A program made the position numbers. Shown here piece after piece: positions 9,001 to 12,000 of a DNA stretch of 22,142 nucleotides. Numbering within the stretch: position 1 is the stretch's first letter; each line of letters begins with the position of its first letter. Source of the stretch: a virus; UHGV virus genome UHGV-0075672; one strand, given 5' to 3'.

Positions 9001-12000
9001 CGGACTTGTCTATGTGACCGCTTTTCCAAATCGCTCCATCATGGGACGATATCTTGGTGAAATCGCATGGGAAACAGAGGTATGGGTGGCTGATGCACCT
9101 TCTCATCTTATTCACTTCAACGGAGTGCGATTTCTTGGCCCCTACTCTACTGAATGAGTACAGGACCAGATAAATAGCCCGGCCCATGCGCCGGGTTTTT
9201 CTTTGCATATCCCCTCCTGCTATCTGTCCCCTTCAAAAATAAATCACTTTAAAAATCAGTTAAGTAATATTTTCTTGCCCACAATAACCACCAACGGTAT
9301 TTACACAAAAATCACCGCAAGTTATATTTATTTCAAGCCAGAAACATCGCGCCCTTACACAGGGCTACATAAATCAGTCGTACGGCGCGACTTAACCCGC
9401 CGCAAAATGCTCTTTAACAATCTGGAGCTTTACAGCGTCAATGACCTGTTTAGACCCCTACACGTAAACGTGCTGTATCATCGGGTGCGATCCGGTCGAT
9501 GAGAGAGTATCCCCGCGCGAGAGCGAGAACGGCGTGAGAACGGGCAACACTGGCAGGAAGTTGGCGCTGACCAATACAGGGAATGTTTTGGGGTGCTGAG
9601 AGTGCCACCAAAGCGTTGCGTGAAATAGCGATGCCGTCCCAACCCTGTAGCAAAAGTAATGATTGGATACCATAAGACCAATCACAATCATTCTACGATT
9701 ACCTATGCCGCACAAAGTTATTTTTTCAACACAATGTTCAAGTTTTCAACTGACTTCTTTATACTACCGCGTAGGTAGTGCTATCAAATAGACTATGTAA
9801 GCACTTCATGAAGGATGTCGGTCGAACTGAACGGGAAACTTAATGATGCGAAAAATACTCAGGACAACTCTTATCGCTACAATTTTGTTTTCACCAATAG
9901 TACAGGCGGAGTGGTATACAGTAACAGACGACGATTTGTTCTCTGATGGTCACACGGCGCTGATGGTAGGAAAAAAAACATCAAATCCTGAAGAGATTGA
10001 TAATAACATGATTGCTCTTAATTGTACGCCAAGATCCCTAACATTCTCATTAGTCGAAAAGGACATAGAAGAAGAAACATCGGCCCCAATTTATTCATTC
10101 CCAATAGATATGGCAATAAAAATTGACAAAAATAGTATAATAAGGCTCAACGCAACACTTTCAAGAAGAAACTCAATGCTAACACAAGCTATCACTGAAC
10201 GTACTGATACTGAAATGAAGAAAATTAAAATTATACTCAGGCAACTCAGAGATGCTAAACATAGAGTGAGGGTCGGGATTCGACGCCAAGACATCACACG
10301 AGAAGATGCCATGACATATTCTTTCAGCTTTAATGTATTAGGCTCCACTGGTGCTGTTAATAAATTTATCACTGCATGCGGAATAAAGCTGTAAACATGT
10401 TTCTGCCAAAGCAACCTTGACAAATCCACATCGACGGGGATATATTCCACCTCATGGTGCTGAACACACCTTGCAAAGCGGAGACCGCACCCGTCAGTCA
10501 TGCGGCTTTTTTATGTCCATTTTTCAGATATGGTCGGGTAGCGCGTATACCGAAAAACAGCCGAAAGGTTAAGGATACGGGCCGACTTTGCACGGTGTTC
10601 AAGTACCTGGCCGCCCTGCTGAACACAGGGCTATCTGAACAAATGCAAAGGACATAAAATATGAACTCTCAACTCATCCCCGTATTCAACGGCACTATCG
10701 ACAACGAAACTACCCTGTTCTGTAATGCCCGTGATTTACACGCGTTTCTCGAAGTCGGAAAAGACTTTTCCACGTGGATACGAATCCGCATCTCCGAGTA
10801 TGAATTTACAGAAAACCAAGATTTTATTTTGCTCCCCAAAACGGGGGAGCAAAGAAAAGGTAGAGGCGGTCACAACCGCAAGGACTACCACCTCACTCTC
10901 GATACAGCCAAAGAGCTTGCGATGGTTGAACGTAACGAAAAAGGCCGCCAGATACGCCGATACTTCATCGAGTGCGAAAAGAAACTTCGCCAGAGCCTTT
11001 TACCTGCACCAATGAACATCAACTACCCTCTCTCGTGGTTCTCAGATAACCATCCCTACGCCACGATGAACTATGTTGATCGCAAGGTTATCAGCCTTGA
11101 TGCTTCCGTGCTCTTCGATATGCCAAGCCCAACTATGCGCATCCTCAACGAGCTACACAGCAAAGGCTATAACGTTGACGCCGCTGTCGCCGAATTTAAC
11201 GCCTTCAAGCATCTGACGGAAGAAATGCGCCGTAAATTGCTGGATATTTCCCGCACATCGGAAAAGTCTTCCCGCTTTGGTTTCAACGTTAATCTTTAAT
11301 TAACCCCATCCCCGACCACATATCGGGGATTAAATTAAATATCTGGATTAATTAACCGGAGGATTTGTCATGCTCAAACCTCACTACGGAACCGCATTAG
11401 TTTCTCGCGAGGACGTTAAACCCGGCACAGCAATTCTTTACAACGGGCGTTATTACATGGCGTCAGCGAACGTTAATAATGCACTTTACGCACATTCACT
11501 GATTGAAAAAATTCGCATTATCTCAGATGCAATAGAAGTTTACCTGAACAATAAAGGCCAACCGTTAATCTCACCAGCCTGAAAGGAAATATCATGCTCA
11601 ATCAAAAAATAAATATCAATGTAAAAAGCGTCGTAACTCCAGCAGGAACGATAATGGGAGAAGTTTTTATGGATGATAAAATCATCGCCTATTTTGTCGT
11701 CCTGTCTGATGAGGCTATTTCTGTTATTGATACGGAAGGCAATGTTATGTTTATCGCAGAACATCCAGAAGACATCGCATTACAGGCCGCTGCATATTTC
11801 TTCGCTAAGGAGCAGGAGGAAGAATGTAACTGCCCTGTATGTCAGCTTTCCCGACAAATTAATTTAATGCATTAACCGGAATCAGGAGTTCCGCCATGAA
11901 CGCATACCTCACCTGCGACCGCATAGAGGAGCGTCGCTGGATTAATCAGCAAATTCAGGATGAAAAGGATAAATGGATTGATGATCGGGCGCAGGAGCTT

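Follow-up and report, generated by a model that had tools for sequence, protein, structure and literature searches.

The early-left region of UHGV virus genome UHGV-0075672, of which 22,142 nucleotides (nt) were analysed (the window; one strand, 5' to 3'), probably has three parts in series: an early-left promoter (pL) followed by a nut-type leader RNA, then a cargo gene for an exported protein (the open reading frame ORF183), and then a separate antirepressor module. The leader, whose core spans about 165 nt (9407-9571), is a close relative of phage phi80 nutL, and it stands here in a phage that carries no N gene. The window matches the Oslovirus/Eru1-type Shiga toxin (Stx) phage genomes P13374, TL-2011c and ArgO145 and E. 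coli prophages. By these matches it is an Eru1/Oslovirus-type lambdoid prophage of the P13374/TL-2011c kind, and because the layout follows that of annotated relatives, the early-left direction is read left to right on the plus strand. As a kind of gene ORF183 is ordinary; the nut-like leader without N is the more interesting part. Coordinates of all features are given in Table 1.

The phi80-type nutL leader and its promoter

The stretch 9201-9842 was described in a first-pass annotation as a long non-coding region. Its non-coding status is borne out, as nine related assemblies were all annotated without a gene in the corresponding gap and a Pfam search of all open reading frames of at least 40 amino acids on both strands of 9200-9800 gave no match. 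It is not an idle spacer, since most of it is the phi80-type nutL leader plus pL. In an alignment with P13374 and an E. coli prophage, a backbone block from 9175 to about 9617 is 96-98% conserved, a variable segment comes next, and conservation returns near 10415. On this comparison, 9201-9595 is a conserved, element-dense control region and the remainder to 9842 is the 5' flank of an inserted cassette.

The promoter aligns column for column with the annotated -35 and -10 elements of phi80 pL and with its CI operators, and the homology of the two promoters is solid at the level of sequence. Assignment of a CI operator at pL is tentative. The motif ATATMACC-N3-GGTKATAT occurs at two sites in the window, one at oR (5908-5926) and one overlapping the pL -10 element (9309-9327), against a chance expectation of 0.16 per window. 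Two points weigh against the assignment: it depends on one palindrome with two mismatches, and a generic 17-mer comparison of oR with oL did not rise above shuffled sequences (best 14/17, within the shuffle range). Operator discovery from k-mers or 17-mers shared by oR and oL was therefore dropped, the explicit palindrome search alone being informative; an inverted-repeat finder run on oR and on 9150-10700 returned nothing useful.

No plus-strand terminator was called by the scan between 9336 and 9843. Close to the predicted 5' end of the pL transcript lies a small hairpin (9354-9368), in a leader segment specific to Eru1-type phages. A blastn comparison of 9150-10700 with the whole window found no internal repeats. 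In a Smith-Waterman alignment, 9337-9373 resembles 5138-5176 on the same (plus) strand over 35 nt, with the pattern GCCAGAAAC.ATCGCGCCC..ACAG..CTAC (local score 38; shuffles 19.5 +/- 2.7). This similarity ties the predicted 5' end of the pL transcript to a 220-bp gap inside the rightward operon; the 5138-5176 copy is antisense to pR transcription and could mark an oop-like antisense promoter and its start, or a shared protein-binding site.

Downstream of this segment, positions 9408-9595 are 94% identical to phage phi80 (over 188 nt), to HK225 and to Klebsiella phage KO-TP1; identity falls to 74-78% against Klebsiella phage ST13-OXA48phi12.2 and Edwardsiella phage Edno5. In phi80 records the stretch is labelled 'nutL regulatory signal' (M11919) or 'nutL boxA' and 'nutL core' (JX871397), and it lies just 3' of the annotated CI operators and pL and 5' of the gene annotated N. 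The window copy has the same site just 3' of pL/oL, and its boxA and CACGTAAACGTG hairpin are identical or nearly so to those of phi80. It differs from phi80 in the first 70 nt or so of the transcript and in what follows, since phi80 has next a 98-amino-acid gene annotated N that is absent here. The boxA itself (Table 1) is identical to the rrn-type boxA consensus, and its core, TTTAACAA, is invariant across 15 lineages.

In HK225, KO-TP1, ST13-OXA48phi12.2 and Edno5, too, the early-left operon begins with this leader. A collection with one genome per species supplied nine more copies, from Enterobacter species, Kluyvera and one Escherichia species, and at least 120 IMG/VR viral contigs contain it. 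Across phages of Escherichia, Klebsiella, Enterobacter, Kluyvera and Edwardsiella, with unrelated downstream genes, it is conserved far more sharply than either flank. The diverged copies (74-78% identity) retain boxA, an invariant 26-nt core and the helices, the last with compensatory changes. In four Enterobacter and Kluyvera prophage loci (L031, L033, L034, L036), the sequence AGAGGAG-N8-ATGAAGCACTAA is found about 100 nt past the leader core; it reads as a Shine-Dalgarno sequence, suitably spaced ahead of a mini-ORF of 3 codons (MKH), and could be a translational coupling or attenuation device.

Comparative folding points to a multi-helix RNA within the leader. RNAalifold on 15 sequences, one per lineage, gave 37 base pairs, of which 11 show compensatory changes; shuffled alignments gave 1.6 +/- 1.1 (none of 500 reached 11) and slid controls gave 1-3. 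When 51 distinct rows were aligned to a covariance model, 6 compensatory pairs were counted, where shuffles gave 1.7 +/- 0.9. Support is best for two helices, the boxB-like hairpin (9461-9472) and the invariant hairpin (9473-9507). The former covaries from A-U to G-C in 6 distinct rows and from G-C to A-U in 4. The covariance model scores 198.8 bits at the leader and 12.3 bits at its next best position in the window, and an Rfam search of the leader gave no family match even at E <= 10. The structural evidence is moderate, not strong, because most copies are nearly identical and the structure is not unusually stable.

No N-like arginine-rich gene had been noticed past the terminator of the restriction-modification operon, and targeted searches agree: tblastn with lambda N, phi80 N and HK225 gp40 found no match in the window or in two related prophages, and the Pfam search of the reading frames in 9200-9800 gave none either. 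The lambda-type N antiterminator is a small, basic protein whose N terminus bears an arginine-rich motif and whose gene lies just 3' of nutL; on these searches it is absent here. Eru1-type Stx phages have been described as lacking homologues of N, CII and CIII (Llarena et al.; PMC8044961). The absence extends to most other carriers. Among 87 leader loci with at least 600 nt of downstream sequence, 5 have a phi80-N-like gene after the leader and none has a lambda-N-like one, and the first downstream open reading frames fall into at least 38 unrelated clusters. In ArgO145 the phi80-like sequence extends as far as the place of the phi80 N start and then gives way to another module, which suggests that N was replaced in an ancestor.

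The sole arginine-rich frame among those looked at for N is a 12-codon mini-ORF inside the conserved leader (9499-9537). It was rejected as an 'N peptide', having no Shine-Dalgarno sequence and a frame not kept in ST13phi12.2 or Edno5, and is probably a by-product of purine-rich RNA. In phi80 the start codon at the mini-ORF position is GTG; in Edno5 the arginine-rich frame is a different one.

ORF183 and its cassette

Similarity to ArgO145 and PhiR12_3 ends at 9595, and in those phages the leader leads straight into an antirepressor module. In P13374 the same slot holds a Rha-type regulator module, with similarity resuming at 10434. Because of these two boundaries the segment from 9596 to about 10410 is read as a mosaic insertion. 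The cassette is covered in 3 of 5426 complete E. coli genomes, and about 400 of them carry part of the flanking backbone. The exact ORF183 protein always sits in the same slot of Eru1-type prophages and is present in very many E. coli assemblies (1715 index blocks).

The gene had been proposed as an AT-rich accessory gene for a secreted protein at the N position, and each of these attributes is supported. ORF183 has a GC content of 0.377 (37.7%), compared with 0.388 for the cassette and 0.48 for the window, and a third-codon-position GC content of 0.33, compared with 0.51-0.57 in cI, the methylase, the restriction endonuclease, ant and recT. It is the first gene 3' of the early-left control region, as N is in lambda and phi80. 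Its N terminus reads as a signal peptide (MMRKILRTTLIATILFSPIVQA|EW, codons 9843-9908) with a basic n-region (MMRK), a hydrophobic core (ILRTTLIATILFSPI; mean Kyte-Doolittle value 2.3) and V-Q-A at -3/-1, cleavage being predicted after VQA22. The call is a heuristic residue check, distinct from SignalP, and is repeated across a 66-member family alignment: alanine at -1 in 60 of the 66, A, V or S at -3 in 58, a hydrophobic core in all and K or R ahead of it in 64. A lipobox, L-[ASTVI]-[GAS]-C, occurs in none of the 66 members, and the first cysteine of ORF183 is residue 61. Trp24, Cys61 and Cys179 are invariant in the family.

Database searches place ORF183 in an uncharacterised family. It has no match in Pfam, NCBIfam or PDB sequences, none of the 66 relatives matches Pfam, and its only PHROG match is of unknown function. 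An exhaustive profile search extended the family to 112 clusters at 50% identity, mostly of about 165 amino acids; tblastn of ORF183 against 50,697 phage records gave no match. A weak partial PADLOC hit to Csx23 (E 1.6e-4 over 39 residues) was judged to be noise. An AlphaFold model from 4 sequences was unusable (predicted local distance difference test score 52), and the 66-sequence alignment was used instead. Foldseek found no significant match in the PDB, and a BFVD fold search gave only weak matches (TM-score 0.4-0.5), all to phage proteins that are themselves uncharacterised, among them those of KP15, RB16 and nt-1. The mature protein is predicted to be beta-rich, probably disulfide-bonded, with a domain that may resemble IalB, the invasion-associated locus B protein of Bartonella (PDB 3dtd); identity to IalB is 11%, the Pfam IalB family matches 0 of 66 members and Foldseek did not return IalB.

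Relatives of ORF183 are found in varied settings. A 45%-identical homologue follows com-mom as the rightmost gene of Mu-like prophages, which are inserted at many different sites. In a Citrobacter lambdoid prophage a 40%-identical one, with its own terminator, lies in antisense orientation where the lysis genes adjoin terminase. Chromosomal relatives occur in Leminorella and Kaistia. The cassette is absent from ArgO145 and PhiR12_3 and replaced in P13374, its composition deviates from that of its surroundings, and on these comparisons ORF183 is a horizontally acquired, mobile, moron-like accessory gene. Morons of lambdoid phages are cargo genes such as lambda bor and lom. ORF183 is like them in being AT-rich, present or absent among near-identical phages, related to genes at unrelated prophage positions, and predicted to be exported to the envelope. 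It is unlike them in lacking a terminator of its own (none lies between 10394 and the next promoter) and a convincing promoter (none passes the scan), and in being the co-directional first open reading frame of the pL operon; by the first two features it falls outside the strict definition of a moron, and in this phage it is most simply read as the opening gene of the pL transcript.

A rival reading is that ORF183 is a classical lysogenic-conversion moron, expressed in the repressed prophage independently of pL from its own promoter, perhaps under palindrome control, and altering the envelope or host interaction. The inverted repeat ACTACC-gcgta-GGTAGT (9763-9779) and the possible -10 element TATACT (9760-9765) pointed out earlier are both present, and the repeat as RNA has a folding energy of -8.8 kcal/mol (z = -2.7), equalled by 2 of 200 shuffles. 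The palindrome overlaps this five-of-six match to the -10 consensus, gene and 5' flank are both AT-rich, the Citrobacter relative, antisense to late genes, needs its own promoter besides having its own terminator, and the Mu-like relative lies after mom at a prophage end. The promoter itself falls below the strict scan threshold, however, its best -35 element being TTCAAG (3 of 6, 17-nt spacer), and ORF183 is co-oriented with pL about 500 nt downstream, with no terminator in between and none 3' of the gene. The 5' flank is identical in all copies, so that conservation is uninformative there. The repeat and TATACT may be a weak promoter or operator of the cassette, and the classical lysogenic-conversion reading as a whole is possible but on the unlikely side. 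A second inverted repeat, TGATTGG-N11-CCAATCA, was read directly in the cassette 5' flank at 9660-9684.

Under the layout preferred here, with ORF183 as cargo of the pL operon, the gene would be the first open reading frame of the pL transcript, and inactivation of CI would at once switch on its expression; a weak promoter of its own may allow some low expression in lysogens as well. The product would be exported by Sec, cut by signal peptidase I after Ala22 and folded in the periplasm, making it a predicted soluble periplasmic protein. A role as an envelope-acting accessory factor for the lysogen or infected cell, for example in phage exclusion or envelope protection, is our best guess, at low confidence, and on this guess ORF183 is not a regulator that takes the place of N.

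How the leader could act without N

The operon of cI, methylase and restriction endonuclease ends at 9176-9197, and pL, overlapped by its putative CI operator, follows. Transcription starting near 9335 would give an untranslated leader of about 500 nt. Its boxA would recruit host NusB/NusE, together with NusA, NusG and SuhB, to the elongating polymerase, and the resulting complex would shield both the operon and its long untranslated leader against Rho and favour transcription past terminators such as 10481-10513. This last hairpin lies in the path of pL transcripts and was missed by the terminator scan, its loop being 11 nt. In rrn operons, boxA and Nus factors mediate suppression of Rho. The window leader is like the rrn leaders in its exact boxA, nearby hairpin, promoter-proximal place and position ahead of long untranslated RNA; it is unlike them in the order, boxA and then hairpin, and in an extra conserved structure of about 110 nt that has no rrn counterpart. 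The Nus/boxA mechanism, judged by itself, is a tentative account, to which we give somewhat less than an even chance.

The leader would have to work without phage N, which neither this prophage nor most other carriers encode. Complete phage genomes are on deposit for N-less carriers, so that these phages either can do without early antitermination or obtain it from the leader, and it is the second that we infer. A larger claim is that 9407-9571 may be a previously unrecognised N-independent processive antitermination element, made of boxA and a multi-helix RNA and present in more than 100 enterobacterial lambdoid prophages; this is possible, though less likely than not.

Several observations weigh against the explanation preferred here. 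One slid control (+3) gives 5 compensatory pairs in the 51 distinct rows, where 6 were observed. The thermodynamic stability of the leader is unremarkable (z = +0.84), and its copies are mostly more than 90% identical, with compensatory changes coming from a few diverged lineages. As for a nut site proper, boxA and a short stem-loop (9408-9420, 9461-9472) are found promoter-proximal in an early operon, and neither a cognate N nor a second site (nutR) in the rightward operon is. The covariance model detects the leader once in the window and once in every one of 86 loci, with no nutR- or putR-like second copy; lambda nut and HK022 put, in contrast, each have one 3' of pR. The ArgO145 boundary also fits a leader that is a relic of an ancestor with phi80-type N.

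The last point opens the reading in which the leader is a non-functional remnant, the ancestral phi80-type N having been replaced by cassettes and nut persisting by recent descent or by linkage to pL. It draws on the phi80-like sequence of ArgO145 up to the N start point, on the near-identity of most copies (>93%), which fits recent spread, and on the unexceptional stability of the fold. Decay is hard to square, however, with conservation sharper than in both flanks across the phages of five genera with unrelated downstream genes, or with diverged copies that keep boxA, the 26-nt core and compensated helices. Phi80 N accompanies just 5 of 87 carriers, and the N-less P13374 and TL-2011c are deposited as complete phage genomes, TL-2011c being reported to produce phage. 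A remnant is accordingly unlikely, and a functional leader is preferred.

A further proposal is that the leader acts as HK022 put does, as an antiterminator RNA sufficient in itself, binding RNA polymerase directly and not through boxA and Nus factors. Put RNAs come as similar putL and putR copies and act on the zinc-binding domain of the RNA polymerase beta' subunit. Both are cis-acting RNA elements just 3' of pL in N-less lambdoid phages, the extreme conservation at sequence level is as expected of an RNA contacting conserved host machinery, and a put-like mechanism has been suggested for another N-less lambdoid phage (PMC12315714). The put RNAs are roughly 70 nt with two stems (PMC9378689), whereas the window leader is a multi-helix junction of about 140-165 nt that occurs as a single copy, without a putR-like partner, and contains a perfect boxA pointing to Nus factors. 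Homology to HK022 was dropped when blastn of the leader against HK022 22.0-33.0 kb, which covers its pL-side region, gave no match. A put-type mechanism is thus quite improbable, and the Nus-dependent account remains the preferred one.

The antirepressor module, prophage context and significance

It had also been suggested that the early-left operon may start at the promoter at 10417, leaving ORF183 outside it; this is the best sigma-70 match in the region (11 of 12 positions) and is kept in P13374, but a phi80-homologous pL lies upstream at 9300-9328, no CI-operator motif is found at 10417, a U-run hairpin lies no more than about 65 nt further on, with an sRNA-Xcc1 element after it, and P13374 and ArgO145 have isrK and C4 (Rfam) at the homologous site, so that the proposal is very hard to credit. 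The same features, with the position 3' of ORF183 and the antA/antB gene that follows, argue from sequence that 10417 is the antirepressor module's own promoter and not pL. The isrK and C4 pair characterises P1 immI-type antirepressor control. The module resembles P1 immI c4-ant and Gifsy-1 IsrK in having a constitutive-looking promoter, short structured leader RNA and then an antirepressor gene; it differs in carrying an sRNA-Xcc1-family element at the C4 position. P13374 has two sRNA-Xcc1 copies, each 5' of an antirepressor gene; in locus L002 the copies lie at 12594-12677 and 20883-20972. An APSE-phage study likewise places sRNA-Xcc1 ahead of an ORF6N-domain gene. The 'sRNA' may regulate antirepressor-type genes in cis or in a c4-like way.

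Table 1. Features of the early-left region and its surroundings in the window
Feature	Position	Strand	Basis or remark
Palindrome at oR, next to cI: ATATAACC-AAA-GGTGATAT	5908-5926		
cI	5930-6643	+	annotated relatives
Methyltransferase	6738-8207	+	annotated relatives
BsuBI/PstI-type restriction endonuclease	8204-9157	+	annotated relatives
Intrinsic terminator of cI/methyltransferase/endonuclease operon	9176-9197	+	terminator scan: 8-bp stem, 6 G-C pairs, then TTTTCTTTG
pL, early-left promoter: TTTACA, 17-nt spacer, TATATT	9300-9328	+	promoter scan 10/12
CI-operator-like palindrome AAATCACC-GCA-AGTTATAT	9309-9327	+	overlaps pL -10
Hairpin GCCCU-UACAC-AGGGC near predicted 5' end of pL transcript	9354-9368	+	direct reading; minimum free energy fold of 9336-9425; also in P13374
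boxA, TGCTCTTTAACAA	9408-9420	+	unique exact match in window; 'nutL boxA' of phi80 JX871397
Structured phi80-type nutL leader RNA (predicted)	9433-9569	+	RNAalifold, covariance model
Outer helices	9433-9440/9562-9569; 9446-9450/9552-9556; 9456-9458/9542-9544	+	
boxB-like hairpin CACG-UAAA-CGUG	9461-9472	+	
Invariant hairpin	9473-9507	+	
12-codon Arg-rich mini-ORF (MREYPRARARTA)	9499-9537	+	inside conserved leader
Further hairpin	9514-9536	+	
Variable cassette (mosaic insertion): ORF183 and AT-rich 5' flank	9596-10410	+	GC 0.388
ORF183, precursor of predicted soluble periplasmic protein, 183 amino acids	9843-10394	+	ATG start
Sigma-70 promoter TTGACA, 18-nt spacer, TATATT	10417-10446	+	scan 11/12, best nearby; kept in P13374
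Hairpin and U6 run, terminator- or attenuator-like, about 40-65 nt past the 10417 promoter	10481-10513	+	fold; with T-run in P13374
Rfam sRNA-Xcc1 element, 5' leader of antA/antB	10532-10620	+	65.9 bits (gathering score 53)
antA/antB antirepressor gene	10661-11299	+	annotated relatives

The rest of the prophage follows the layout of annotated relatives, with the Q-side genes, primase, helicase and cro on the minus strand and, 3' of antA/antB on the plus strand, kil, gam, recT and exo, on to xis/int. The terminator at 9176-9197 is kept in P13374. The methylase/endonuclease pair takes the place of lambda rexAB. In near-identical prophages the same slot (window 6738-9157) holds an opposite-strand hicAB toxin-antitoxin pair (L001 10251-10840; L019 5596-6185), and by this comparison the slot between cI and pL is an exchange site for defence or addiction genes.

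Further RNA features were recorded elsewhere in the window. Rfam isrK (19659-19736, plus strand, 73.6 bits) and C4 antisense RNA (19762-19846, plus strand, 70.6 bits) lie directly 5' of an open reading frame at 19870-20577, and by these matches make up a further antirepressor control module, of the P1 immI type, in this prophage. A match to the Rfam sok antitoxin (CssrC; 396-570, minus strand, 118 bits) points to a hok/sok-type toxin-antitoxin locus near the Q/nin end. In the 220-bp gap of the rightward operon, 5198-5217 form a perfect hairpin, GTGCCC-TTAC-GGGCAC, whose loop on the transcribed minus strand is GUAA, a GNRA tetraloop; it could be a nutR-like or processing signal.

With ORF183 the cargo of Stx-type prophages gains one more family of exported proteins that is uncharacterised, and since very many E. 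coli assemblies carry the exact protein, any effect it had, for instance on phage exclusion, envelope protection or host interaction, would be of wide relevance. Eru1-type Stx phages include those of the 2011 O104:H4 and 2006 O103:H25 outbreaks, and their lack of N was already known. The conserved phi80-type nut leader with a perfect boxA at the Eru1 pL is a concrete candidate for how early transcription escapes termination in this clinically important group. If the leader is indeed an N-independent element, it would account for early-left expression in N-less phages, including Stx phage of the O104:H4-outbreak type, and phi80 'nutL' would be one instance of a class and not an N-specific site.

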